Shown piece after piece: positions 1,603 to 56,556 of a stretch of 64,000 nt of DNA. The position numbers and the translations under genes are program-made. The stretch lies in the NCBI GenBank assembly GCA_910584195.1, contig CAJTYV010000001.1, positions 239,728 to 303,727 of the forward strand, in the 5' to 3' direction. Position 1 is the stretch's first letter, and every line of letters begins with the position of its first letter. This stretch comes from an uncultured Ruminococcus sp. (GTDB lineage: Bacteria > Bacillota > Clostridia > Oscillospirales > Ruminococcaceae). Under the pieces are notes generated by a model that was not told the origin of the DNA, did not search any database, and saw nothing but the letters and a program-made list of their open reading frames with translations.

Positions 1603-4353
1603 TCATTCTTTTGTAGGAAGTTTGGTGATAATCTTTGCATCAATCTTTTGGATCGCAAGCGCATCGCTTGTCTTAACGCCGTCGCCCACATTGCAGCAAT
1701 CCGCGTTAAGTGCGCCCTGCTTTGAAAGTCCGTATTTGTCTTGATTTCCCAAAGCCTGAAGAATCGCTGTTGAATCTGCAATAGTGACCTTACCGTCGCA
1801 GTTCGCATCGCCCACGAGTATATCTTCCTCAGTGCTATTTGTAGAGTCCGCAGACTTTCCGTTCGGCTCGACTCCCCAAACAAGCTTATCATCAGCATAA
1901 AGAGTGATCTTATCGGTAATTGCAGCGGCATCGTTATCGTCCTCAAAGCTTACAAGGTCGCTGTAGCTGTAATCGTTTAACGAATCCCAAACAGTATCGT
2001 AGGTTTCAGGATTCATTTTATTAAGCAAACCAAACTGATAAACACGGCTGCCATAGAAATCACAGTTTTGCCATGAAATTTCAATATAATAATTTCCTTT
2101 ATCATCATACTTTACCGGCTCTGAAATAAGCGCCTGATTTTTTCCGTCAGTAAAGCTTTTCTCCTGATCGTAGTCGATACGGGTTTCAATAAAGCTTATA
2201 TCCTCACCTTTTTCAAGCTGTTCACTGATGTTAAAATAGTATCTTGCTTTAAGATTGCTTTCAAATTTAGGCGGATTTACAGTCCTGTTATGAACAACTA
2301 TCTTGATCTGAATACCCGCATCTGTCTCCTGAGATTTTCCTCCTGAAATAAAAAGTCCTGTAGGAAGCGGATTACCGTCCGCATCGATCTGATCGAAGCC
2401 GATAGCGTTCTCGGACATATTGAAATCGGGAATAACATAGTTCTTATCCTCAAGCTCCTTGCCCTTAGCACCATAGAAGTGATAAAGTCCTGCAAGATCT
2501 CCGCAGAAAGCCGCGTTGTAATCGTCTGTAACCTCGTTATAGATAAAGTCCTTTGTTTCGTCACGGTGGAAATCATCGGCATCAGGACCGCCTACCAAAG
2601 CTCCCCAAAGCGTATGAACCTGAACTACCGGATCGTCCATGCTCTGCTTAGCTGAACAATGTGAAGAACGATGATGAGCCTGAGAAGCAAAATTACTTTC
2701 GTAACCTACTTCATAAGCATAACCCATAGGATTGTTGCCGAGAATATACTCCATTTGCCCTTTAGCCCAATCAGCAAAAGTCATGTCGCCCGTTTCCTTG
2801 GCATATACCATTGCCTGTAAACCGGCAGCGGTGTTGTATCGAGCCGAACCGTAATCGTTAAGCATCGCAAAGCCTGCCGGAGTTTTTTTGAGCCATGCTC
2901 CGTCTGCCGTGGGAAGATCGGCAATTTCCTCTGCGGTAATTTTTGTGTTCCAAATAACGTCGTCCTGTCCAAAATATTTATGAGACGTTACAGGTACGTC
3001 AAAATCCGCAGCCGCAGCATCAGCCTCGCCGAGACCCGACCAGAATTCAAGATTCCAGCGGAAGATATACCAGTCACGGGATATATTGGTCACAGGCGCA
3101 AGTTTAGCAAAAACGCCGCCCCATACAGTATCCCAGCAGTGAACCCATATGTTCTGCCAGCAGTTGCCTGTATCTGTAATAATACGTTTCATATAGCCTG
3201 TATAAGGGTGAGCTCCCATTTCACCGGAAACGGATTCGTCAACGGCGATAATATCGTCAATATAATCGTAATTTTCGGTACAATAATAAAGCCACACAGC
3301 CGCCCATGCAAGCTCGTCATAATCATAGCTTGAAGTGTAGAAACCTCCGTCATATCCAAGGCTGGTAGCTGTCGGTGTCATACCGGGTTCCCATTCTTCG
3401 CTGTGAGTTTCAACGGCAAAATCATAAAGCGCCAAAGCATACTTCAAACATTTTTCAGCATATTCGGGATCGCTGTCCTTAAAATTAAGATAATTCACCG
3501 CAAGAGAAGCAGCAGCTCCTGCACACTGATCGGAAGCGGGCATCTCAGTTGTAGCGAAATATGCGGGTCTCTTTACTGCGCAGGACGAAGAAGCAACGAC
3601 AGTACCGTCCACCTGAAGTTCGGGAGGACACCAGTAGTTGTGATCGTTTCCTCCTTCGCCGACTTGATAGCAGTAACCGACTACCTTACCGTCCTCATCA
3701 AGAAAAGTCGCTTTCATGAAGTAGTCGTTTATCCAGCGCAGCTCATCCTCAACATGCTTATCAAGACCCAGCTCCTTATATGCTTCGGGGAACTCATAAT
3801 ACCCCCAACCGAGAGTTGAAGCGGAATAACTTCCCGGAAGACCGAATTTTACATGATCGCCGGCATCGTGCCAACCGCCTGTCAGATCTATCGTCCCGTT
3901 GCCGTCCGGATCAAAATATTTCTTATTGGCATCAATGAATTTCTGAGACATATTAACGCCTTCATAAAGTCCTTCCGCCGCACTTGCACCGCCGTCTCCC
4001 TCGCCGTTGTATTCGCCCCGGTCGTCTTCATCTTCATCCGTTTTTTCGTCATCAACGGGTTTTCCGTGATTTACCGTAGGCATCGGCGTCATTGGCTTAA
4101 GCGGTATTTCGGCATCTTTAACATGACAATCCGCACGCCATGAATAATATCCGTCCTCCGCAACCTCATCGCCGCACTTATTCGCATCATAAAAGCACAA
4201 TCCGAGCTGGAGAGCTTCAGCGAAATTCTGATAATTATTCGGCTTGTCGGGAGTAATTACAGCGGCGTTCGAGACCGTCGGCAAGCATGAAATAAGCACT
4301 GCCGCCGCTGAAACGACTGCCGCAGATCTGCCTAACAGCTTCAACTTCTTCAT
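1603..4353 (-). CDS. GH9 endoglucanase with CBM3c-like module and C-terminal dockerin, signal peptide present
   Basis: Signal peptide and the GH9 motif DAGDHVKFGLP, with the catalytic-region motif NEVTDDYNAAF. The C-terminal dockerin reads DANCDGKVTIADSTAILQALGNQDKYGLS...NADCCNVGDGVKTSDALAIQKIDAKII. Confidence 0.9.
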   Translation of the reverse strand: MKKLKLLGRSAAVVSAAAVLISCLPTVSNAAVITPDKPNNYQNFAEALQLGLCFYDANKCGDEVAEDGYYSWRADCHVKDAEIPLKPMTPMPTVNHGKPVDDEKTDEDEDDRGEYNGEGDGGASAAEGLYEGVNMSQKFIDANKKYFDPDGNGTIDLTGGWHDAGDHVKFGLPGSYSASTLGWGYYEFPEAYKELGLDKHVEDELRWINDYFMKATFLDEDGKVVGYCYQVGEGGNDHNYWCPPELQVDGTVVASSSCAVKRPAYFATTEMPASDQCAGAAASLAVNYLNFKDSDPEYAEKCLKYALALYDFAVETHSEEWEPGMTPTATSLGYDGGFYTSSYDYDELAWAAVWLYYCTENYDYIDDIIAVDESVSGEMGAHPYTGYMKRIITDTGNCWQNIWVHCWDTVWGGVFAKLAPVTNISRDWYIFRWNLEFWSGLGEADAAAADFDVPVTSHKYFGQDDVIWNTKITAEEIADLPTADGAWLKKTPAGFAMLNDYGSARYNTAAGLQAMVYAKETGDMTFADWAKGQMEYILGNNPMGYAYEVGYESNFASQAHHRSSHCSAKQSMDDPVVQVHTLWGALVGGPDADDFHRDETKDFIYNEVTDDYNAAFCGDLAGLYHFYGAKGKELEDKNYVIPDFNMSENAIGFDQIDADGNPLPTGLFISGGKSQETDAGIQIKIVVHNRTVNPPKFESNLKARYYFNISEQLEKGEDISFIETRIDYDQEKSFTDGKNQALISEPVKYDDKGNYYIEISWQNCDFYGSRVYQFGLLNKMNPETYDTVWDSLNDYSYSDLVSFEDDNDAAAITDKITLYADDKLVWGVEPNGKSADSTNSTEEDILVGDANCDGKVTIADSTAILQALGNQDKYGLSKQGALNADCCNVGDGVKTSDALAIQKIDAKIITKLPTKE

Positions 4354-5075: not shown

Positions 5076-5080
5076 CTTAA

Positions 5081-5392
5081 TTATGACCAGACCGATAAGC
5101 CGGGTTCTGTCGTGTACGGCAATTTATCTACTCTTATCGTCGCCGATAAGCTTTAGCCGTCATTACTGTACATCCGCCGAGCCGGCGTTAAAATGCACAG
5201 CACCAATAGACGTTGCATCGGGTAGGGTTTACATGGCAGTACGGTCTCCCGCACCCCGGTGAGCTCTTACCTCGCCTTTCCACCATCACCTGATTTCTCA
5301 GGCAGTTTATTTCTGTTGCACTTGCCCTAAGGTCGCCCTCGGCTGCCGTTAGCAGCTACCCTGCTCTATGATGCCCGGACTTTCCTCATAAA
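5081..5392 (-). ncRNA. rnpB: RNase P RNA (bacterial, Firmicute type)
   Basis: The minus-strand sequence contains GAGGAAAGTCCGGGC near the 5' end, GGTAAGAGCTCACC internally, and ACAGAACCCGGCTTATCGG near the 3' end. P1 pairing (ttatga / tcataa) links the two ends. The interval has no credible ORF and is GC-rich relative to its flanks. Confidence 0.85.
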
Positions 5393-5564
5393 CTTTATCG
5401 TTCATGCTGCCGTATAGTCTGCTCAATTGCATTATAACATTTTTATTGCGGATTGTCAAGCAATTTTTTCACAGTCTTTCTATATTTCTTGAATAATGGC
5501 ATTTGACTTTTTTCATATCATGTGATATAATTATACGCATAAAAAATAAAAAGGTGATATTAAT

Positions 5565-14214: not shown

Positions 14215-14357
14215 GAACATGTTTAAAGAAACACCGATCATATTACGTCTGACGGCTTGACATACATCTTGCTTGCAATTTTCGCTGTATTGCTTTTAAC
14301 AGCATGCTTTAAAGTGGAGAAAAGCAGATAGTAAATTATTTACGGAGGTATAAATCA

Positions 14358-28796: not shown

Positions 28797-28871
28797 AAGC
28801 GTCTGAACTTAAAAATGAAGTTTTAAGGCAACACCGCACAAAACTGTCAAGAGATGTTGCCTTAATATTTT

Positions 28872-31318: not shown

Positions 31319-32683
31319 TTACTTTACAATATCTTCGTCACCAAACGGATCTCCGCATTCTGCGCAGAATTTCGGAGGATTATAAGGGTCGGCAGGTTCC
31401 CAGCCGCATTTATCGCACTTATAGAGCGGCTCTCCCACAGGTTTCGCCTTACCGCATTCGGCACAGAATTTCCCTTTATTTACCACGCCGCATGAACAAG
31501 TCCAGCCGTTTTCAGCTGGCTTTGGATTACCGCAGTTTGAACAGAATTTTGAAGTATTCTGCTGACCGCACGAGCATTTCCAGCTGCCGTCATCGGGCTT
31601 CGACTTACCGCAGTTCGCACAGAATTTGCCATTATTTGAAGTTCCGCATGAACATTTCCAAACGCCTGACTGAGCCTGCTGCGCACCCATGGAGTAAAGA
31701 TTCTGAGTATTTAGTCCGCCTGCCTGCTGAGCCATATTCATACCGAAGAATCCCATAGCCGCACCGCCCTTGTTGTCCGCCGCCTTGACCATTGCCTCGT
31801 TCTGAGCTTCGACCATTTTTGCGGCAGCATTGAGGGGATCTCTGTTCCATGCAAGATCTTCGTATTTCTTTATTCTGTCCTCGTCTTCTTTTGGAATAGA
31901 AACGGATCGGATAGCTACCTTGCAAATCTCAATACCTCTGTCCTCAAGCCATTCTTTTTTCAAAACTTCTTTCATGGCGTTAGTGATAGCAACGGTATTA
32001 TTCGGAAGCTGATCATATGTCACAAGAGTGGAAAGCTTTGCAAAAGCAGGCTGAAGCTGATTCATAAACTCACTGTAAAGCGTATTGTCGAGCTGATCGC
32101 GATTATAGACTGCCGTAACGTTTCCGCACACATTTGCATAAAACTTCATAGGATCTGCAATCTTATACGAATAAACGCCATTGCAGCGAAGTCCGACAGT
32201 AAAGCTTCTGCCAAGATCGGCATAGCTCACACGGAACGGAACCGGCTGAGAAGTTCCGAATTTATTATCGGTTATTTCTTTTATGTTAAAGTAATAAATA
32301 CGCTGGTCGTGACCCGTATCACCGCCGAATGAAATACGCTTTCCAATAGTTTTGAAAGTATCCTTTATACCGCTGCCAAGACTTCCTGCGAAAATACTTG
32401 GTTCTGTTGACATATCATAAGTGTATTCGCCCGGAACTGCACATATTTCAACAACCTGTCCCTGATCGATGATTATCATACACTGTCCTTCGTTAACAAC
32501 TATAACGCTGCCGTTTGTAATAATGTTATCGCTGCCCCGGGTATTGGATGATTTTTTTCCCGTCCTTTTATAACCTTTAACAACAAGAGTTGAGGGAGGG
32601 ATAGCATCGCAGCAGAAAAATTCTTTCCACTGATCTGAAAGCGCCGAGCCTGCTCCTGTGAAAACTGCCTTTATAAGACCCAT
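31319..32683 (-). CDS. SPFH/band-7 (COG4260, YdjI-like) protein fused to four C-terminal zinc-ribbon repeats
   Basis: N-terminal SPFH-like domain, then four repeats of W(K/T)CSCGxxNxGKFCxxCGxxKP, then CDKCGW...KFCAECG. Confidence 0.7.
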   Translation of the reverse strand: MGLIKAVFTGAGSALSDQWKEFFCCDAIPPSTLVVKGYKRTGKKSSNTRGSDNIITNGSVIVVNEGQCMIIIDQGQVVEICAVPGEYTYDMSTEPSIFAGSLGSGIKDTFKTIGKRISFGGDTGHDQRIYYFNIKEITDNKFGTSQPVPFRVSYADLGRSFTVGLRCNGVYSYKIADPMKFYANVCGNVTAVYNRDQLDNTLYSEFMNQLQPAFAKLSTLVTYDQLPNNTVAITNAMKEVLKKEWLEDRGIEICKVAIRSVSIPKEDEDRIKKYEDLAWNRDPLNAAAKMVEAQNEAMVKAADNKGGAAMGFFGMNMAQQAGGLNTQNLYSMGAQQAQSGVWKCSCGTSNNGKFCANCGKSKPDDGSWKCSCGQQNTSKFCSNCGNPKPAENGWTCSCGVVNKGKFCAECGKAKPVGEPLYKCDKCGWEPADPYNPPKFCAECGDPFGDEDIVK

Positions 32684-32852
32684 ATTAAAACTCCTTTCGA
32701 TAACAAGTACGAGCTTATTACCTATATCATTTACCGAAATTTATCGGTCTGATTTAATTATAACACATTTTCTCTGATTATGCAAGACTTTTTTCCTGCA
32801 AACAATGCAACGCACAAAGCCGTTTTCAAAACCTTGTGCGTTGTTTTATTAA

Positions 32853-35240
32853 TTATTTATCTGTAACTTCGGGAAGTTCTTTAAGTATTTTCGCGTCTAA
32901 TTTCTGAATTGCAAGAGCATCGCTTGTCTTAACTCCATCGCCGGTATTGCAGCAATCAGCATTTTTAGCACCGAGTGCCGAAAGTCCATATTTATCTGAA
33001 TTTCCAAGAGCCTGCAAAATCGCTGTAGAATCGGCAATAGTTACCTTACCGTCACAATTTGCGTCGCCGTAAAGAATCTTAGGCGCTTCTCCCAGAGATT
33101 CAAAAGTATTGCCGTTTTCCTCGGCATAAGCTTGTGCAGTAGAATTATCATATCCGCAGATTATAACATCGCTATCCAAATTATCTATTTTACAGTTTTC
33201 ATTTCTGATAATAATTTTTTCAATATTGTATAAGTTACTTATTTCATTTACGGAACTTGCAGCGTCTACTACTTTGACATTGCCCCATTCATAGCAATAA
33301 TCATCAAGTACATCTGTACCCTGATACATTACAAATTCGTCAATAACGGAACCCGAAAAAATTCCATACTCCATAACGCTCAGATATTCGGGCATATTTA
33401 TCCTTTTAAGATTTTCGCATCCTGCAAAAGCCATAACGCCCAGTCTGGAAAGTCGTTTTGGAAGAATTACCTCCTCCAAATAATTGTTATTGCTAAATGC
33501 ATAACCGTATACCCAGTCAACGTCATTCGGAACGGTAAACGAAATTCCTTTTTTAGATTCGGGATACATTACGAGAACCTTTTTACCTTCTCTTTCTCTG
33601 TACAATACGCCGTCCTCTGAAAAATAAGCAGGATTCCCTTTTTCAACTTCAACTCTGCCGATATTTGAATCGTCCAGTGCAAATCTTCCTATATTTTCAG
33701 CCGATGCCGGTATCTTGACGGAATTTATCCCGCTTCCGCTTAATGCACCGTCACATATTGCAGCCGTGCCGGGTTTTATCTCAATATCCTGACCGGATAT
33801 ATCGCCCTTGAATCCAAGCAGCGTTGTTCCAAAATATATCGGTCCATCAGGAAGATTTTCAATAAATGGAATATATTCCATATAATATGTCCAACTGTCA
33901 TCATCTTCATTGTATTGAGAGTGTCTGCGTCCGAATGCGTCAAGCGAAAACAACGTTGAATCCGTATTAAGAAGATTGATCTCTTCAAGAGATATACATC
34001 CCACAAAACAATTTTGATTCCAACCCCAATGTCTGACAGAATCGGGGATCGTTACATTAGTCACCTTGCGGCAGTTCTCAAAAGCAGCTCCGCCGATGTA
34101 GTCCGTTCCGTCAAAAATTTCTACACCGCCCTCTTTTCCCTCGGGACACACTTTCAAACCGTCAACCAGACCATCATATCCTTTGCTGTACAAAATGCCG
34201 TCATGGGATTCATAACGTTCATTTTTTTCATCAACATTGATGGCAGTCAGGTTAGGACAATCTGCGCCAAAATACCAATTAATATATTCAACGCTTGCCG
34301 GAAGATTTACCGAAGTTACATTCGGAAGATTGCTGAAAACTCCATAACCTATGTCTATAACGCCGTCCTCAATAGTAACATCACCCTCTAATGCTGTCCG
34401 CATAACCCATATTAAATCTTTGCCTTCACTGTAAGAAGAATTCTTATAAAACATTCCGTTTGAAAATGAATAATTTTGATTGTTTTCATCTATGTTGATT
34501 TCTTCAAGAGCGCTGAGTTCAGCAAACATATAACTATTCATATACTCTACCGATTCCGGAATAGTTATTGATTTAAGAGAATAACAATAGCGAAAAGCGT
34601 CATTTATATCAGTTACGCCGTTCGGTATTTCAATTTCAGTAATTCCAATACAATTAGAAAACGCATCTCCGCTGATATAAGTAAGCGTTGAAGGCAGTAT
34701 GACAGACGTAATTTCTTCACAATATGCAAAAGCATTTGTACCTATTCTCTCTACCCCTTCGGGAACAATATACTCGCCCTGCATTTTTCCCGGACACCTT
34801 ATAAGCTTAGTCATATCTTTGCTGAAAAGCACACCGTCCAAAGAAACGAAATTCTCATTTTCACTGCTTACGATTATCTCCTCAAGGGAACTGCACCCAT
34901 TAAATGCATATGAATCAATTTCTGATATAGTATCAGGCAAACTTACGGAAACAAGAGAAGAGCAATTACTAAAAGCGCGATAACCTATCTCTTGAACTTT
35001 TATGTCGTCAATTTCCGAAGGTATCACAAGTTCGGAAGCGTCCCCGGAATAACCTGTGATTTCAATATAGCTATCGTCCCAGTCGCTTATATAATACTCC
35101 AGACCATCTTCTGTCACATAATCAGCCGCGTTAACATTTGTCAAAGGCAGCCGTTCTGTAAAACAGACCTTATTCACAGCAACCGCAAGACTCATTACAG
35201 CAGCAATCCCGAATAAAGCCGCTTTTGTTGTTTTTTTCAT
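32853..35240 (-). CDS. Secreted BspA-type leucine-rich-repeat protein with a C-terminal dockerin
   Basis: Signal peptide, repeated ...AF.NC.SL..I.IP..V..IG..AF... LRR units, and a C-terminal YGDANCDGKVTIADSTAILQALGNSDKYGLS...NADCCNTGDGVKTSDALAIQKLDAKIL dockerin. Confidence 0.8.
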   Translation of the reverse strand: MKKTTKAALFGIAAVMSLAVAVNKVCFTERLPLTNVNAADYVTEDGLEYYISDWDDSYIEITGYSGDASELVIPSEIDDIKVQEIGYRAFSNCSSLVSVSLPDTISEIDSYAFNGCSSLEEIIVSSENENFVSLDGVLFSKDMTKLIRCPGKMQGEYIVPEGVERIGTNAFAYCEEITSVILPSTLTYISGDAFSNCIGITEIEIPNGVTDINDAFRYCYSLKSITIPESVEYMNSYMFAELSALEEINIDENNQNYSFSNGMFYKNSSYSEGKDLIWVMRTALEGDVTIEDGVIDIGYGVFSNLPNVTSVNLPASVEYINWYFGADCPNLTAINVDEKNERYESHDGILYSKGYDGLVDGLKVCPEGKEGGVEIFDGTDYIGGAAFENCRKVTNVTIPDSVRHWGWNQNCFVGCISLEEINLLNTDSTLFSLDAFGRRHSQYNEDDDSWTYYMEYIPFIENLPDGPIYFGTTLLGFKGDISGQDIEIKPGTAAICDGALSGSGINSVKIPASAENIGRFALDDSNIGRVEVEKGNPAYFSEDGVLYREREGKKVLVMYPESKKGISFTVPNDVDWVYGYAFSNNNYLEEVILPKRLSRLGVMAFAGCENLKRINMPEYLSVMEYGIFSGSVIDEFVMYQGTDVLDDYCYEWGNVKVVDAASSVNEISNLYNIEKIIIRNENCKIDNLDSDVIICGYDNSTAQAYAEENGNTFESLGEAPKILYGDANCDGKVTIADSTAILQALGNSDKYGLSALGAKNADCCNTGDGVKTSDALAIQKLDAKILKELPEVTDK

Positions 35241-35417
35241 GTAAGCTCCTCCTCTTATACAACATCGCTTTTTAAGCTAAGCCTATTGTCACTCTTAATA
35301 TTAATATAATTAAACAAAATATATTGTTTCAATTAATTATAACATATTTAAAAATATCTTGCAAGTAAAAAGTTCATATTTTAAATATCGACGCACAAAT
35401 ATTGTGCGTCGATGCTT

Positions 35418-38509: not shown

Positions 38510-38534
38510 AAAACAGTATCCTCATTTCATGATA

Positions 38535-38575
38535 TAATCAGATACTACAATTATAACAAATATTTCATTATTTTG
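38535..38575 (-). promoter_or_regulatory. Sigma-A promoter (TTGCAA-17-TATAAT) for the GH3 gene; copy 1 of a duplicated promoter/leader cassette
   Basis: The minus strand reads cttgcaaaataatgaaatatttgttataattgtagtatc. Confidence 0.55.
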
Positions 38576-38619
38576 CAAGAGTTTTTATAAAAATGCAGAC
38601 TTTTTTCGCCAAGCATTAA

Positions 38620-39006: not shown

Positions 39007-39049
39007 AAAATAATACCTCCTTTCATAATCTAACAAGATACTGCAATTA

Positions 39050-39090
39050 TAACAAATATTTCATGAATTTGCAATAGTTTATAAAAAATC
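39050..39090 (-). promoter_or_regulatory. Sigma-A promoter (TTGCAA-17-TATAAT); copy 2 of the duplicated cassette
   Basis: The minus strand reads attgcaaattcatgaaatatttgttataattgcagtatc. Confidence 0.55.
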
Positions 39091-46990: not shown

Positions 46991-47016
46991 AATACCGCAC
47001 TAATCAGTGCGGTATT
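46991..47016 (+). terminator. Terminator hairpin aataccgcac taatca gtgcggtatt
   Basis: A perfect 10-bp stem after the ROK gene. Confidence 0.55.
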
Positions 47017-50753: not shown

Positions 50754-53700
50754 TCACCACGGTCTCTGACCGCCGCCTGTTGAGCCGCTGCCTGCTGTAA
50801 CCGCTGTTCCGCCTGAAATGGTTCCGCTTGCATATACAAGCTGCGAATCGTCTAACGTAATAAGGTCAGTACCACCCGAAATTGTTCCGCCTGTGTATGC
50901 GTTTACGGTTCCGTCTGTGTGCTTGTATGAAATAGAACCCATAGAGCGTACGGTTTTGAACGATACAATGACGCTGCCATTTCCGTCTGCAAGAGTAAAC
51001 TGAGTACCCTCAGCAATAGCTCCCGAACCCTGTGAAGAAGCTGTTACAACTGTTCCGCCTGTTGCGCTGTTCGTTCCGTCACTGTCGAGAGGTTCCTGAC
51101 CGTTTGCAATAACAACGCCGCCTGTGATAAGCAAATCTCCGTTTGAATCGAACGCATCGTGATCGCCGCTTGCCGACTGTACAATAGCGATACCTCCCGT
51201 TATCTGAAGCGTATTATCGCCTGCCGAGCCAAAGCCTCCTCCGGGTCCCCAGCCGCCGGGATTGTTATTTCCGCTGCCATCAGCGCCGCCTGCCGCATTG
51301 TAACCGTCATCATCTGCCTTGATAACAACAGTACCGCTGTGCTGATAGATGTTCTGTCCCTCAACGCCTTCGTAACACTTAGTAACATATATACCGAAAT
51401 CACTTACTGAACCGCTGTCTTTTCCGAGTGTCAGATCATGATCCGAATGAAGCGCATCATCAGCTGTGGCAAGCTTAAAAGCTCCGCCGCTGACATTTAT
51501 GTTTCCGCCGCAGTGTATACAGTCATCCGAACTGTCAATAATAATATTTCCGCCGTTTATCGTAATGTCGCCGCCGCTCTGCCATGTCGTTCCTGCCGCA
51601 TCGTAAATGCCAACAGCCTTTATGCCTTTTGCGGATATGTCAGTTTTATTGGAGTTTCCGTCTCCCATTCCGCCCATTCCGCCGCCCCACGGATTACTTC
51701 CTGTGTTTCCGCCGGCAGTGCCGGTAAAACCCGAACCCTCGTATGTATAAATATCAATATCGCCGCCGTTGATGATCACACTCTGTTCAGCCTGAATGCC
51801 GTCCGCGTATGAATTTATATCGAGAGTTCCTCCGTTTACCGTAACGATACCGCACGATTTGCCCGATGCCGTATCTGTACTCGTAGACTTTATACCGTCT
51901 CCCTGCTTTGTGTTTATGGTAAGCTTCAAAGCTGAAAAATCAACAGCAGTATCATTGCCGATAGTCACGCTGTCCTTGCCTCTAATACCGTCGTCAACCG
52001 CATTTACCGTGAGACTTCCGTTATATATTTTTACATCGTTTTTGCAAACTATAGCGTCATCGGTATTTCCATTAACGGTAAGCTCGCCCGTTCCCTTGAA
52101 TTTAATGTCATCTCTTGCAAAAACCGCGCCTTCGACTGTATTAACGTTTCCGTCAGAATCAGTGTATGTCTCCGTATGAGACGTACCGTCCGAAATGGTA
52201 TTGACAGTTCCTTTCTTGGCAACGATCTGTACCTCGTCTCCAACAGATTTTACATAAATCGGAGAAGTAGAACTGTTTGATATATTCGCTCCTTCAAGGT
52301 CAAGCTCAACTATGCCGTCAGGATAAGCTGTTTTGTCAACATCGACAATTATCTGAACTTCGGAAGCTTCTCCCGAAACAGCAAAAATTCCGGGCTTTGA
52401 TATAGTCAGTTTACCGTCTGATGCTGAAGCGGTATCAGCAGGAGCGTCAGACATGACAGACGCACCGTTCAGAGTTACGGTATATGTACCGTCAGACGGA
52501 GTTGGCGGCGGATCAACAGTGCCGCCGTTTCCTACGGGATCAACATCAGAAAATACCGTAACAATTCCAGTCATATTAAATTCGGATAAGCCGCCTGCTG
52601 TCGCATTCGTGCCTGTAGACGCATTTGTAACAGTATATTTACCGTCTGCTGAAAGGGAAGCGTCGCTGATAACTGCAAATGCATATTTTTTTGTCCATGC
52701 GTCAAATTTCACGCTGCCGACTTTAAGAGCGTTTGCTTTTTTCCAGCAGCCGTCAGTTTCAGAAGACGCTATGCAGTTAAGAAGCATCGTTCCCTGAGTT
52801 GTACCTGACATAAGAGCAGAATCAGTTTGATTATCGGTAGCTGTTACCGCAATAGTACCTCCTGTAATATTAGTTCCTGTAAGCGATGTAAGACCTCTGT
52901 CTCCTCCTCCGAGAACAGTACCACCCGAAATATCAATGGTAGTTTCTGCCTGTACAGCGTCATTTCCGGCTTTTATCGAAACAGTTCCGCCTGAGATCGC
53001 AACATTTCCCTTCGAGGACTTTAAACCGTCTCCCTCTGCATCTATATTGACAACAGCCGTGTCCTTGACTGTAACGGACGTTTTACCCTTAACCGCATCG
53101 GTTTTGTCGACTGCATTGAGAGTTTTAATATTAGTAACGCCGCCCGTAAACTTGATGTCGTTATTGCAGACAAATGCGTCCTGAGTATTGGCGGTGATAG
53201 TGAGAGTGCCCGTATTCTCTGCACCGCCCTTTATAGTAATATCGTCCTTAGCCTCTATAACAGCCGCACCGAGCCATTCACCGGAATAAGCCGTATCGCC
53301 GTCCGAAATAGTGTTTACAGTACCGTCCATAATATTTATTGAGGTATTCTCAGCGTTTGTCACAAGAATCGCCGGAGCTGATTTTCCTGTAATGCTTACG
53401 CCGTTAAGGAAAAGCTTTACTGTTGCAGAATCGACAGTTTCGTCCGCAATATTAACGTTTATCTGACCATCGTCAAGAGTTCCGTCAACATAAAATTCTC
53501 CCGAATGAGAGAGCGTGATTATTCCGTCGTTCACTTCAGCATAATCGCCCTCAACAGACGCCGATGCACCGTTAAGGTGAATATATGTCTTTGAGACTGC
53601 CGGATCAGGATCAGTCTCTTTCCACGATTCGGGAAGTGAAGAAATTATCTTTGCATCAATCTTTTGAATTGAGAGTGCATCGGACGTAGTAACGCCGTCC

Positions 53701-53939
53701 CCTCTGTTGTAAACGTCGGCATTGTTCGCCCCCTGTTCTGAAAGACCATATTTATCAGGATTTCCAAGAGCCTGAAGTATGGCTGTTGAATCTGCAATAG
53801 TCACATGACCGTCGCAGTTTGCGTCTCCGTACATCACACCGTCCTCAGCAGCCATTGACGATACCGCCGTAAGTGACAATGCTGCCGCAGCAGCGGCAAC
53901 TGCGGTTGAAATTCCTGCCAGCAGATTAAGCTTTTTCAT
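50754..53939 (-). CDS. Secreted Gly/Thr/Asn-rich parallel beta-helix-like protein with an N-terminal dockerin (Cthe_2159-like carbohydrate-binding/lyase-like family)
   Basis: Signal peptide, then the dockerin YGDANCDGHVTIADSTAILQALGNPDKYGLS...NADVYNRGDGVTTSDALSIQKIDAKII. After that come about 900 aa of repetitive G/T/N/D-rich beta-strand-like sequence that appears internally duplicated. Confidence 0.7.
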   Translation of the reverse strand: MKKLNLLAGISTAVAAAAAALSLTAVSSMAAEDGVMYGDANCDGHVTIADSTAILQALGNPDKYGLSEQGANNADVYNRGDGVTTSDALSIQKIDAKIISSLPESWKETDPDPAVSKTYIHLNGASASVEGDYAEVNDGIITLSHSGEFYVDGTLDDGQINVNIADETVDSATVKLFLNGVSITGKSAPAILVTNAENTSINIMDGTVNTISDGDTAYSGEWLGAAVIEAKDDITIKGGAENTGTLTITANTQDAFVCNNDIKFTGGVTNIKTLNAVDKTDAVKGKTSVTVKDTAVVNIDAEGDGLKSSKGNVAISGGTVSIKAGNDAVQAETTIDISGGTVLGGGDRGLTSLTGTNITGGTIAVTATDNQTDSALMSGTTQGTMLLNCIASSETDGCWKKANALKVGSVKFDAWTKKYAFAVISDASLSADGKYTVTNASTGTNATAGGLSEFNMTGIVTVFSDVDPVGNGGTVDPPPTPSDGTYTVTLNGASVMSDAPADTASASDGKLTISKPGIFAVSGEASEVQIIVDVDKTAYPDGIVELDLEGANISNSSTSPIYVKSVGDEVQIVAKKGTVNTISDGTSHTETYTDSDGNVNTVEGAVFARDDIKFKGTGELTVNGNTDDAIVCKNDVKIYNGSLTVNAVDDGIRGKDSVTIGNDTAVDFSALKLTINTKQGDGIKSTSTDTASGKSCGIVTVNGGTLDINSYADGIQAEQSVIINGGDIDIYTYEGSGFTGTAGGNTGSNPWGGGMGGMGDGNSNKTDISAKGIKAVGIYDAAGTTWQSGGDITINGGNIIIDSSDDCIHCGGNINVSGGAFKLATADDALHSDHDLTLGKDSGSVSDFGIYVTKCYEGVEGQNIYQHSGTVVIKADDDGYNAAGGADGSGNNNPGGWGPGGGFGSAGDNTLQITGGIAIVQSASGDHDAFDSNGDLLITGGVVIANGQEPLDSDGTNSATGGTVVTASSQGSGAIAEGTQFTLADGNGSVIVSFKTVRSMGSISYKHTDGTVNAYTGGTISGGTDLITLDDSQLVYASGTISGGTAVTAGSGSTGGGQRPW

Positions 53940-54265
53940 TGTTAAAAACTCCTTTTGTTTATTTTTGAAACTCGTACATTGATTTCTCTATGGTAATGAT
54001 TATATATCTCTTGTCTTAAAATAGTCTTAAAGATTTAGTAATATCTCGAAAAAATTTCAGAATTGCATAGCTCTCCCTACGAAAAAATTTTTAAGGCAAT
54101 ACCGTACAAAGACGTCAGGCGTGCTTTGTGCGGTGTTGCATTAGGTAAGCGGTATTGATTCAAACGATTTGACACGGCTTTTACACGCTGACTGTCCGCC
54201 TCTCACGTACAAGCGTATTCACTAAAAAAACATTTAAGGCATGTTTATTTTCTGTATTTATGTCA

Positions 54266-54294
54266 ATTGATTTTTGGCTGAAATTGGGATATAA
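54266..54294 (+). promoter_or_regulatory. Sigma-A promoter TTGATT-17-TATAAT for the aspartokinase gene
   Basis: ttgatttttggctgaaattgggatataat, about 100 nt upstream of the ATG at 54397. Confidence 0.6.
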
Positions 54295-54396
54295 TAAATA
54301 TTGTTGCAGAAATAACAACGGCTTTGTTCGATAATTTTATAAAAACTGTGTTTACAGGTTTATTGAACAGACCTGATAATTAAAGGTGGAAAAAGT

Positions 54397-55731
54397 ATGG
54401 CAAATAAAGTTGTAAAATTCGGCGGCAGTTCTTTAGCGGATGCAAATCAGTTCCGCAAGGTTGCCGACATCATAAAATCTGACGATAAACGCAGATACGT
54501 TGTTCCCTCAGCTCCCGGAAAACGCTGTTCCGATGACATCAAGGTCACGGATATGCTGTATAAATGCTGCGAACTTGCTGGAAGCGGCGTGGACTTCACT
54601 GAAGATTTCCAGCTAATAAAGAACCGCTACAACGGTATCATATCAGATCTCGGAATTGATATGAATCTTGACAGCGAGTTTGATACGATCATTTCAGAGC
54701 TTAAAGCCCGCCCTGCCAAAGATTACGCTGCCAGCCGCGGAGAATACTTAAACGGAAAGGTTTTGGCAGCATATCTCGGTTTCACTTTCGTTGACGCAGC
54801 CGACGTTATCGTATTTGACACTAAAGGACGGCTGATGCTCGATGAAACGGTAAGAGCAGTCCGCAAAAAAATTAAGGGACTTGAAAACGCAGTTATTCCC
54901 GGTTTCTACGGACGTACCACAGAAGGTATTATCAAAACATTTTCAAGGGGCGGTTCAGATGTTACAGGTTCTATAATCGCAAATGCCGTAAACGCTGAAA
55001 TTTACGAAAACTGGACAGATGTTTCGGGATTTTTGGTTGCCGACCCCAGAATCGTTGACGAGCCTGAAGCTATAGAAACAATAACATACCGCGAACTTCG
55101 TGAACTTGCGTACATGGGGGCTTCCGTACTTCATGAGGACGCTATTTTCCCCGTTCGTTCCGCAGGTATACCGATAAATATCCGCAACACCAACAAGCCT
55201 GAAGATAAGGGAACAATGATAGTCTCAAACGACTATGATTTCAGCCATGAAAGTCTTGGTCACACCATTACGGGAATTGCAGGCAAAAAAGGGTTCAGTA
55301 CCATTAATATTGAAAAAGCTATGATGAACAACGAACTCGGCTTTGGCATGAAAGTACTGAACGTATTGTATTCAAACGGCATTTCATTTGAGCATATGCC
55401 ATCCGGTATTGACACTATGAGCATAACTGTCGACAGCGCAAAGCTTGAACCGGTTCGCGAAAAAGTGATTTCGGAAATTCGCCGTGAGGTCAACCCCGAT
55501 CATCTTGAAATTGAAGACGGAATCGCCATTCTTGCAATTGTCGGCAGACGAATGAAAAACACACGCGGAACTGTTGCACGTGTTTTCGCCGCTATGGCTC
55601 ACGCACGCATAAATGTAAAACTTATAGATCAAGGATCGAGCGAATTGAACGTTATTATAGGAGTAAGCGAAAGCGACCTCCCGGAAGCTATCCGCCGCAT
55701 TTATGACATGTTTATAAACTCTGAAAAGTAA
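54397..55731 (+). CDS. lysC: Aspartate kinase (monofunctional)
   Basis: N-terminal VVKFGGSSLAD and C-terminal ACT domains. Confidence 0.9.
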   Translation: MANKVVKFGGSSLADANQFRKVADIIKSDDKRRYVVPSAPGKRCSDDIKVTDMLYKCCELAGSGVDFTEDFQLIKNRYNGIISDLGIDMNLDSEFDTIISELKARPAKDYAASRGEYLNGKVLAAYLGFTFVDAADVIVFDTKGRLMLDETVRAVRKKIKGLENAVIPGFYGRTTEGIIKTFSRGGSDVTGSIIANAVNAEIYENWTDVSGFLVADPRIVDEPEAIETITYRELRELAYMGASVLHEDAIFPVRSAGIPINIRNTNKPEDKGTMIVSNDYDFSHESLGHTITGIAGKKGFSTINIEKAMMNNELGFGMKVLNVLYSNGISFEHMPSGIDTMSITVDSAKLEPVREKVISEIRREVNPDHLEIEDGIAILAIVGRRMKNTRGTVARVFAAMAHARINVKLIDQGSSELNVIIGVSESDLPEAIRRIYDMFINSEK

Positions 55732-56426: not shown

Positions 56427-56556
56427 TGATTTCTCCTCTTTATAATAACATAAATCTTAGGCAGCACACAAAGAGATCATGCCGAAAAAGCACAAACTTA
56501 TTCGGTTTAAAGACATCGGACATTCTTTGTGCGGAGCTGCTCTAACATTAAACGCA

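Follow-up and report, generated by a model that had tools for sequence, protein, structure and literature searches.

A hairpin upstream of aspK in an uncultured Ruminococcus is very probably a short member of a MITE family with IS5-type ends

Several short, hairpin-forming repeats described in bacteria resemble the one analysed here in individual features. The Correia elements of Neisseria are short, non-coding MITEs with terminal inverted repeats, a TA duplication and many intergenic copies, which occur in size classes formed by internal deletion and can form a hairpin over the whole element; we know of no parent for them. The bcr1 repeat of the Bacillus cereus group is reportedly MITE-like, with a length of ~155 bp and a TTTAT duplication, and the compensatory changes and one-strand G·U pairs of its predicted hairpin are said to have been interpreted as pointing to an RNA-level function; to our knowledge, no transposase has been identified for it. 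REP sequences are imperfect palindromes of 20-40 nt that carry a conserved head tetranucleotide and are associated with a Y1 (HUH) transposase, and we know of no target duplication in REP/REPIN or IS200/IS605-type elements. Finally, IS5 and the IS5 group have 16-18-bp repeats that start with GG and a 4-bp (C/T)TA(A/G) duplication (PMC5009759; PMC3281130 Table 2), as does the family described below.

Here we analyse a palindrome upstream of the aspartate kinase gene (aspK) in a 64-kb stretch of DNA from an uncultured Ruminococcus sp. (the window), together with the family to which it very probably belongs. Like the Correia elements, this family has intergenic copies, discrete size classes, a whole-element hairpin and a TA-containing target, but it shows no sequence similarity to them, and it has a 4-bp duplication and a candidate parent insertion sequence (IS). 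With bcr1 it shares the character of a Firmicute MITE-like repeat with a target duplication and a hairpin that displays compensatory changes and one-strand G·U pairs, while differing in sequence, duplication and host group. Its copies are interspersed, extragenic, hairpin-forming palindromes, as REP and REPIN sequences are; however, they possess terminal inverted repeats, a duplication and a match to a DDE IS, whereas REPs lack these and have a Y1 transposase instead. The ISs found here with the ends of the family encode transposases of 319-325 aa with DUF772 and DDE_Tnp_1 domains; unlike IS5, the element in the window is geneless, measures 52 bp (178 bp in the full form) and has only the 15-17 terminal bases in common with these family-ended ISs. 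MITEs with IS5-family ends are already known as a kind, and it is for the family itself that we found no earlier description: literature searches, by sequence as well as for repeats or MITEs of Ruminococcus and Faecalibacterium, returned none, the one related item being a large automated MITE survey in which Ruminococcus is named in passing.

The palindrome, hereafter copy A, reads TTAA-GGCAATACCGTACAAAG-ACGTCAGGCGTG-CTTTGTGCGGTGTTGCA-TTAG over positions 54091-54144 of the window, all of its parts being given on the + strand. A left target-site duplication, TTAA (54091..54094), adjoins the left terminal inverted repeat GGCAATACCGTACAAAG (54095..54111), which matches the family repeat GGCAAYACCGCACAAAG at 16/17 positions and equals the left repeat of the IS5-family element L296 except at Y10 and T14. 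The 12-nt centre ACGTCAGGCGTG (54112..54123) aligns with CCGTCAGGCGGT at positions 147-158 of the full-element profile, a segment retained in every copy of the 52-bp class. It is followed by the right terminal inverted repeat CTTTGTGCGGTGTTGCA (54124..54140), whose reverse complement TGCAACACCGCACAAAG also matches the family repeat at 16/17 positions and which pairs with the left repeat by way of two G·U pairs on the + strand. The right target-site duplication, TTAG (54141..54144), has one change relative to TTAA, which leaves the flanks matching at 3/4 bases, and the element ends there rather than at 54158, to which an earlier note on this DNA had extended it. With 46 bp plus flanks, copy A falls in the 52-bp size class.

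That the palindrome is real, as the same note had claimed, is confirmed by folding. The + strand, with a stem of ~20 bp that includes the two G·U pairs and a 12-nt loop, folds at -30.4 kcal/mol, compared with -13.3 +/- 2.6 for shuffled sequences (z = -6.6; 0/200 shuffles equal), and the - strand folds at -19.5 kcal/mol, a polarity in the same direction as that of the full copies. Up to three mismatches being allowed, the 21-mer arm TTAAGGCAAYACCGYACAAAG is found at three sites in the window (28823 +, 54091 + and 54124 -; expected 0). A profile built from 49 full-length relatives and run against the 64-kb window with nhmmer recovers copy A at 54084-54142 with E = 4e-10. Copy A is very probably a 52-bp member of a family of non-autonomous DNA transposons (MITEs).

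The locus is a 457-nt spacer with divergent genes on both sides, namely a gene for a 1061-aa dockerin/Cthe_2159 protein to the left (- strand, start 53939) and aspK to the right (+ strand, start 54397). Both neighbours point away from copy A, and a terminator scan of 53850-54450 detected no terminator-like site, in agreement with the previous assertion that the hairpin is not a terminator. A perfect-looking dyad in a divergent intergenic region of this size might instead be an operator, bound by a dimeric protein that regulates either aspK or the dockerin protein gene. We regard this as very improbable, since the same sequence lies beside unrelated genes in at least 82 genomes, another sequence occupies the site in strains whose flanking genes are 99% identical, a 95% relative has none, and the dyad is 124 nt upstream of the aspK -35 box. 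The latter belongs to a promoter-like site, TTGATT-17-TATAAT (54267..54295, + strand), which lies 124 nt downstream of copy A and so places copy A upstream of it and probably outside the aspK transcript.

When assemblies of the window's own species with 99-100% identical AspK were compared, two of them (L126 and L127) were found to have the same TTAA and TTAG but another filler of 58 nt between them, which is similar to the decayed copy D described below. The 95% relative L128 is without ~130 nt that include copy A, and is also without copy C. Copy A sits upstream of both divergent promoters, and close relatives have another sequence in its place or none at all. Nothing points to a regulatory role for it, and it is most likely a neutral relic rather than a regulatory site. 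L128 also has, at 2900-3000, an aspartate kinase leader with ~110 nt that are missing from the window and that could be a candidate leader or riboswitch. The protein on the other side of the spacer shares with two others in the window a 217-nt repeat of 71-73% identity (1616-1832, 32872-33088 and 53632-53848), which looks like a dockerin module. Its hosts are three genes for secreted proteins (GH9+CBM3, BspA-type LRR and Cthe_2159); two of the proteins have the repeat at the C terminus, and in the 1061-aa protein it directly follows the signal peptide.

A scan of one genome per species with the 19-mer TAAKGCAAYACCGYACAAA gave matches in at least 120 stretches from at least 82 species genomes. 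Among the matches listed, the hosts are mostly Ruminococcus and other Oscillospiraceae, along with Acutalibacter, Neglectibacter and Christensenella-like bins, and many of them are gut and rumen Ruminococcus-like bacteria. With mismatches allowed, these stretches hold at least 256 ends and at least 90 complete elements, which bears out the view that the hairpin is part of a family of interspersed palindromic repeats. Often the matches occur as +/- pairs with a spacing of ~160-180 bp, or they are found no more than 100 bases from the end of a contig, facing outward. By length, the 90 complete copies among the matches listed group at 39, 52, ~166, 176-179 and ~200 bp, with 176-179 bp as the main class; copy lengths span 39-204 bp, with a full element of ~178 bp, and all are non-coding. 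Full copies end in 17-bp inverted repeats GGCAAYACCGCACAAAG, the element proper beginning with GGCAAY and finishing with RTTGCC. The left (L) end of the full element continues …AAAG ATTGTGCG…TTTTTCGTCAGATTG… and the right (R) end …AAAG ACCGCCTGACGG CTTTGCAC…TTTTCCGTCAT…; the two are distinct and the full element is asymmetric, so that each copy can be oriented. The core (A)CGCACAAAG by which the family had been defined in the earlier note does not single it out: the 8-mer GCACAAAG occurs three times in the window against 2.2 expected (39/100 shuffles equal), and this shared core was dropped as a family signature.

Some copies lie outside the main host group. Those in bins labelled Bacteroides faecis, Barnesiella and Coriobacteriaceae (L009, L011, L044, L055, L005 and L080) come from one project and sit mostly at contig ends, and mis-binned contigs are the more likely explanation for them than transfer across phyla. 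Full 178-bp copies occur in Subdoligranulum variabile replicons of 60% G+C (L146, OY725839.1; L147, OY725879.1), and such copies also turn up in 65 stretches of IMG/VR as well as on ~20 contigs of uncultured 'Bacteriophage sp.' derived from human faeces (hits H3-H22). The plasmid and phage collections yielded only further unannotated copies, in these S. variabile replicons and 'Bacteriophage sp.' contigs. The copies in L025, L059, L084, L087 and L092 enclose a nested palindrome of ~25 nt, CGCCCGAAGGAAGTGCCCTTGGGGTAC, which may be another small inserted element.

The sequences that flank the inverted repeats have the properties of a target-site duplication. Among the matches listed, 57/82 complete copies have identical 4-nt flanks and 25 have imperfect ones, whereas 2000 permutations of the right flanks gave a mean of 25 and a maximum of 36 identical pairs. 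Registers of 2, 3, 5 and 6 bases give at most three matches, and only the 4-nt register works. TTAA is the most frequent left-flank tetramer (47 of the 82 copies listed), followed by CTAA (8) and TTAG (7), the others being mostly TTAT or ATAA. The 21 perfect pairs other than TTAA comprise CTAA (6), TTAG (5), TTAT (3), ATAA (2) and one each of TATA, TTAC, CTAT, CTTG and GATA. These flanks are direct and not inverted repeats, which makes them target-site duplications and not part of the terminal repeat; a duplication of TA or TTA, and the assignment of TTAA to the inverted repeat itself, were both excluded by the register test together with the direct non-palindromic pairs. The target of these elements, which we term type 1, is essentially (C/T)TA(A/G) with a preference for TTAA. 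IS5 of E. coli duplicates (C/T)TA(A/G) (PMC5009759), and the two motifs are the same. Inverted repeats combined with a 4-bp duplication uphold the suggestion that the family is mobile DNA.

These inverted repeats are also found at the ends of ISs of 1143-1168 bp, which encode an IS5-family DDE transposase and are flanked by YTAR duplications. A scan of viral contigs for the 17-bp repeat revealed a 1166-bp element with an IS5-type transposase ORF at L296 247-1412. Its left repeat GGCAACACCGCACAAAG is the MITE repeat at 17/17 positions, and its right repeat GGCAACACCGCACAATT is a variant also present in Subdoligranulum MITE copies. The ORF has thousands of homologues of 319-325 aa with the Pfam domains DDE_Tnp_1 (PF01609) and DUF772 (PF05598), some of which are named 'IS5 family transposase' in their sources; several homologue clusters have more than 1000 members on contigs of ~1.2 kb, which is the signature of a multi-copy IS in metagenomes. 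The contigs of two homologues with 81% identity (L333-L341) contain a 1143-bp IS with the repeat GGCAACACCGCACA and ends GGCAACACCGCACAGAA…, bounded at different sites by the perfect 4-bp duplications CTAG, TTAA (two sites) and TTAG, and at another site by CTAA/TTAA. L342 holds a 1168-bp copy with a 94% homologue and the flanks CTTA/CTAA.

MITE and IS have only their terminal 15-17 bases in common and nothing internal, which indicates that the MITE is not a simple deletion derivative of the IS; it is an unrelated hairpin that carries IS ends. The occurrence of the same repeats around IS5-family ISs with YTAR duplications implicates an IS5-like mobiliser and not the REP-associated tyrosine transposase (RAYT) that the earlier note had in mind. 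We tentatively propose that an IS5-like transposase supplied in trans, predicted from the identity of the inverted repeats and of the duplication, would bind the inverted repeats of the element, excise or copy it, and insert it at a staggered 4-bp cut. The window itself encodes no transposase gene among the ~50 of 55 ORFs covered (40 by Pfam scans, the rest by precomputed Pfam hits). In the first 120 genome loci, no autonomous copy was found among end pairs 0.6-3.5 kb apart, inspection of the sequence inward of solo ends showed no transposase, and no ORF was repeated between loci; a candidate at L065 2069-5011 encloses ordinary host genes and was rejected. Parents surfaced only in the viral-contig scan (type-1 ends) and in the metagenome scan (ends of the type-2 family described below).

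It was previously suggested that the palindromes are REP/BOX-type elements, and in this reading they would be extragenic palindromes of the REP/REPIN type spread by a RAYT (a Y1 HUH transposase). The elements are indeed interspersed, palindromic and mostly intergenic, and their hairpin favours one strand, a polarity typical of elements handled as single-stranded DNA. However, they have 4-bp direct duplications, with 21 perfect pairs other than TTAA, and true 17-bp terminal inverted repeats common to ISs with DDE transposases, both of which contradict a REP/REPIN label; moreover, the conserved GTAG-type head is absent from the family ends, and no Y1 transposase is present among the window ORFs scanned. 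We therefore give almost no credence to a REP origin. Single-strand transposition of the IS200/IS605 type, raised by the strand polarity, was likewise dropped in view of the duplications on both sides. Copy A is very probably an ordinary kind of selfish DNA, and neither a REP element nor a regulator.

The structure of the full element suggests how the MITE family may have acquired its short forms. There, GCACAAAG closes the left repeat, and GTGCAAAG precedes CCGTCAGGCGGT-CTTTGTGCGGTGTTGCC near the right end. A deletion between the two CAAAG direct repeats would join the left repeat, CCGTCAGGCGGT and the right repeat, which is the layout of the 52-bp class, and the 39-bp class may similarly have arisen by deletion between two TTGTGCGG repeats. 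The long hairpin could bring the direct repeats together and so favour slippage. This deletion origin of the 52-bp class is suggested by the repeat structure. Alternatively, the short forms could themselves transpose, with which a near-identical 52-bp copy at a non-homologous site in L028 is in keeping.

Apart from copy A, the profile identifies three family copies in the 64-kb window, which brings the number to four. Copy B (28823..28865, + strand; profile match 28824-28846, E = 2e-3) is an internally deleted element that sits between convergent genes; with TTAA on either side, it retains the left repeat GGCAACACCGCACAAA, followed by 13 remaining nucleotides and by GTTGCC, the outermost bases of the right repeat. 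Copy C (56456..56545, + strand; profile match 56479-56542, E = 3e-5) is a decayed 82-bp element with the flanks CTTA/CTAA that matches profile positions 112-176 and lies in the trkH-trkA spacer, antisense to both genes. This spacer measures 130 nt in the window, compared with 38 nt in the 95% relative (L128/L129) and 293 nt in L127, and copy C is the window copy with the best prospect of affecting a transcript. Copy D (14223..14312, - strand; profile match 14226-14293, E = 7e-4), which the earlier note did not include, is a decayed element with TTAA on both sides, located between a 120-aa ORF and the isocitrate dehydrogenase gene. It matches profile positions 107-176, and its + strand resembles the R end of the family. 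Both copy C and copy D are antisense to their neighbouring genes.

Thus, of the relatives of copy A listed previously, those at 28823-28865 and 56456-56545 belong to the family alongside 54091, and those at 32795, 35388 and 46991 do not. The first of the three non-members, listed as 32795-32835, gives a profile match at 32798-32845 with E = 0.87 and is a terminator-like hairpin of 14 pairs (32808..32843, - strand) after the stop codon of the LRR protein gene. The second, listed as 35388-35416, matches at 35392-35412 with E = 0.41 and is a hairpin of 13 pairs (35386..35414, + strand) with the tail CTTTTATT by the stop codon of an ArsC-like gene. The third (46991..47016, - strand; 11 pairs) lies between convergent genes and gives no match to the family profile. 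A terminator scan flags exactly these hairpins, 32808, 35386 and 46991, which have T-rich tails next to stop codons; they are ordinary terminators with GTGCG/CGCAC in their stems by chance. The window also contains other repeats. A 73-nt block is duplicated with 85% identity (38520-38592 and 39016-39088; also 32756-32793) and precedes small ORFs that lack Pfam matches; it includes a promoter-like site, TTGCAA-17-TATAAT, on the - strand. Three tandem 78-nt units of 65-77% identity (31440-31660), in an SPFH/Band_7 gene, would encode a repeated Cys-containing motif.

In some features the family goes further than a routine MITE. All 34 copies of 176-179 bp have the same 56-pair hairpin, in which 95.4% of the cells are paired, compared with 85.4% in shuffled controls (0/500 reach the observed value) and 35-50% in slid controls, and changes on both sides are seen in 31 pairs against 16.2 expected. 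On the L-to-R strand, wobble pairs comprise 188 G·U, spread over ~14 pair positions, versus 20 A·C at a single position. Every one of the 34 copies folds better on this strand (mean -91.5 versus -68.2 kcal/mol), and the same polarity is found in the 52-bp class and in 6/6 type-2 elements. Where the neighbouring genes are co-directional, the stable strand is the sense strand in 27/38 cases, the p value of 0.014 resting on crude gene calls; the contexts also include 11 antisense copies, 12 copies between divergent genes and 8 between convergent genes.

The type-2 elements, a second family of MITEs, are 160 bp long and have the ends GAGCCTGTTTAGTATCTC; in 7/7 copies they are flanked by a 3-bp duplication of TTA or TGA. 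Copies lie at L127:5064-5223 and L124:2351-end, and also in L022, L026, L035, L070, L095 and L118. Their interior is the type-1 scaffold (profile positions 24-146, E down to 1e-19), and in 5/8 copies the insertion point is precisely the TTA that adjoins a type-1 end. Type-2 ends bound ISs of ~870 bp with two overlapping ORFs and the domains DUF4096 and DDE_Tnp_1 (L205:4619-5488; also L202 and L258), a layout that we take to be of the IS427/IS1031 type of the IS5 family. These ISs are the likely parents of the type-2 MITEs, their own flanks fitting a TA duplication better than TNA.

It is conceivable that the element, or its scaffold, is retained for its structure as one-strand RNA or DNA, with copy A as a remnant, which would be compatible with its being a MITE; it might stabilise an mRNA or serve as a site of mRNA processing, act as a small RNA, or provide a structure that transposition requires. 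The excess pairing and both-side changes of the 56-pair structure, the one-strand G·U bias with its uniformly better folds, the shared polarity of the 52-bp class and type 2, the sense-strand excess in co-directional contexts, and one scaffold in two families with different ends would all be expected of such a function. On the other hand, Rfam 15 provides no family match: in the window it finds RNase P and nothing on the element, the 18 loci with full copies gave none, and at E <= 10 only chance-level matches appeared. The RNase P RNA is of bacterial class A (5080-5425, - strand; 265 bits). Nor is there a conserved promoter or U-tract terminator in the copy A region, which was scanned, or in the full elements as judged by eye; every orientation and context is occupied; copy A is located upstream of the promoters on both sides, and copies C and D have an antisense orientation. 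The sequences are also related, so covariation and polarity may be partly inherited, and palindromic transposons can hold their symmetry through DNA-level processes. On balance, we consider a functional hairpin unlikely.

A more specific version of this idea, to which we likewise attach little confidence, is that selection acts on the conserved ~120-nt internal hairpin in single-stranded form and always with the same polarity, be it as RNA or as a DNA intermediate of transposition; this module would have been fitted with the ends of two IS5-family ISs, one giving type 1 with its 4-bp YTAR duplication and the other type 2 with GAGCCTGTTTAGTATCTC and a 3-bp TNA duplication, both of which would have spread it through Oscillospiraceae. 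The features of the scaffold fit selection on a single-stranded form, a fit that falls short of proof, with shared ancestry and DNA-level palindrome maintenance as alternatives.

Comparisons within and between genomes bear on the activity of the MITEs. The copies in R. flavefaciens FD-1 are 93-98% identical and have unrelated flanks, whereas the mean identity between genomes is 72%; between genomes the inverted repeats are conserved at 94% and the interior at 66%. The copy of a rabbit-gut Ruminococcus (L028) mentioned above is 92% identical to copy A. Within the window's species, copy C is present in the TrkA-TrkH spacer of all assemblies compared, and type 2 is polymorphic: L127 and L124 have an extra 160-bp type-2 insertion at the left end of copy C, flanked by TTA, which is absent from the window, L121-123 and L126. 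Copy B is fixed, an identical copy being present in each of the six further assemblies of the species that were compared. In the comparison with close strains, which had been proposed as a check, the copy A site does differ in L126, L127 and L128, but a clean empty site was not found for any type-1 copy: joined flanks blasted against all loci gave self matches only, the copy B locus was identical in the orthologues L133-138 and no longer syntenic in L142-145, with no empty allele, and copy C is absent from a diverged spacer in L128/L129. Short-read contigs (L122-125) and Logan contigs terminate within copy A, and those of an 89% relative (L139-141) within a full copy.

The elements thus break short-read assemblies and metagenome bins, which explains many contig ends, and since they are polymorphic between strains of one species, they are usable as strain markers. 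Hundreds of such hairpins in Ruminococcus, Subdoligranulum, Acutalibacter and their gut and rumen relatives can be annotated as IS5-type MITEs, a label that prevents them from being mistaken for terminators, operators or REP elements. The elements can also sit inside operons, as copy C does in the trkH-trkA spacer. Furthermore, the one-strand polarity, together with a single scaffold that carries the ends of two ISs, provides a concrete system for asking how bacterial MITEs originate and whether the hairpins have a role as RNA.
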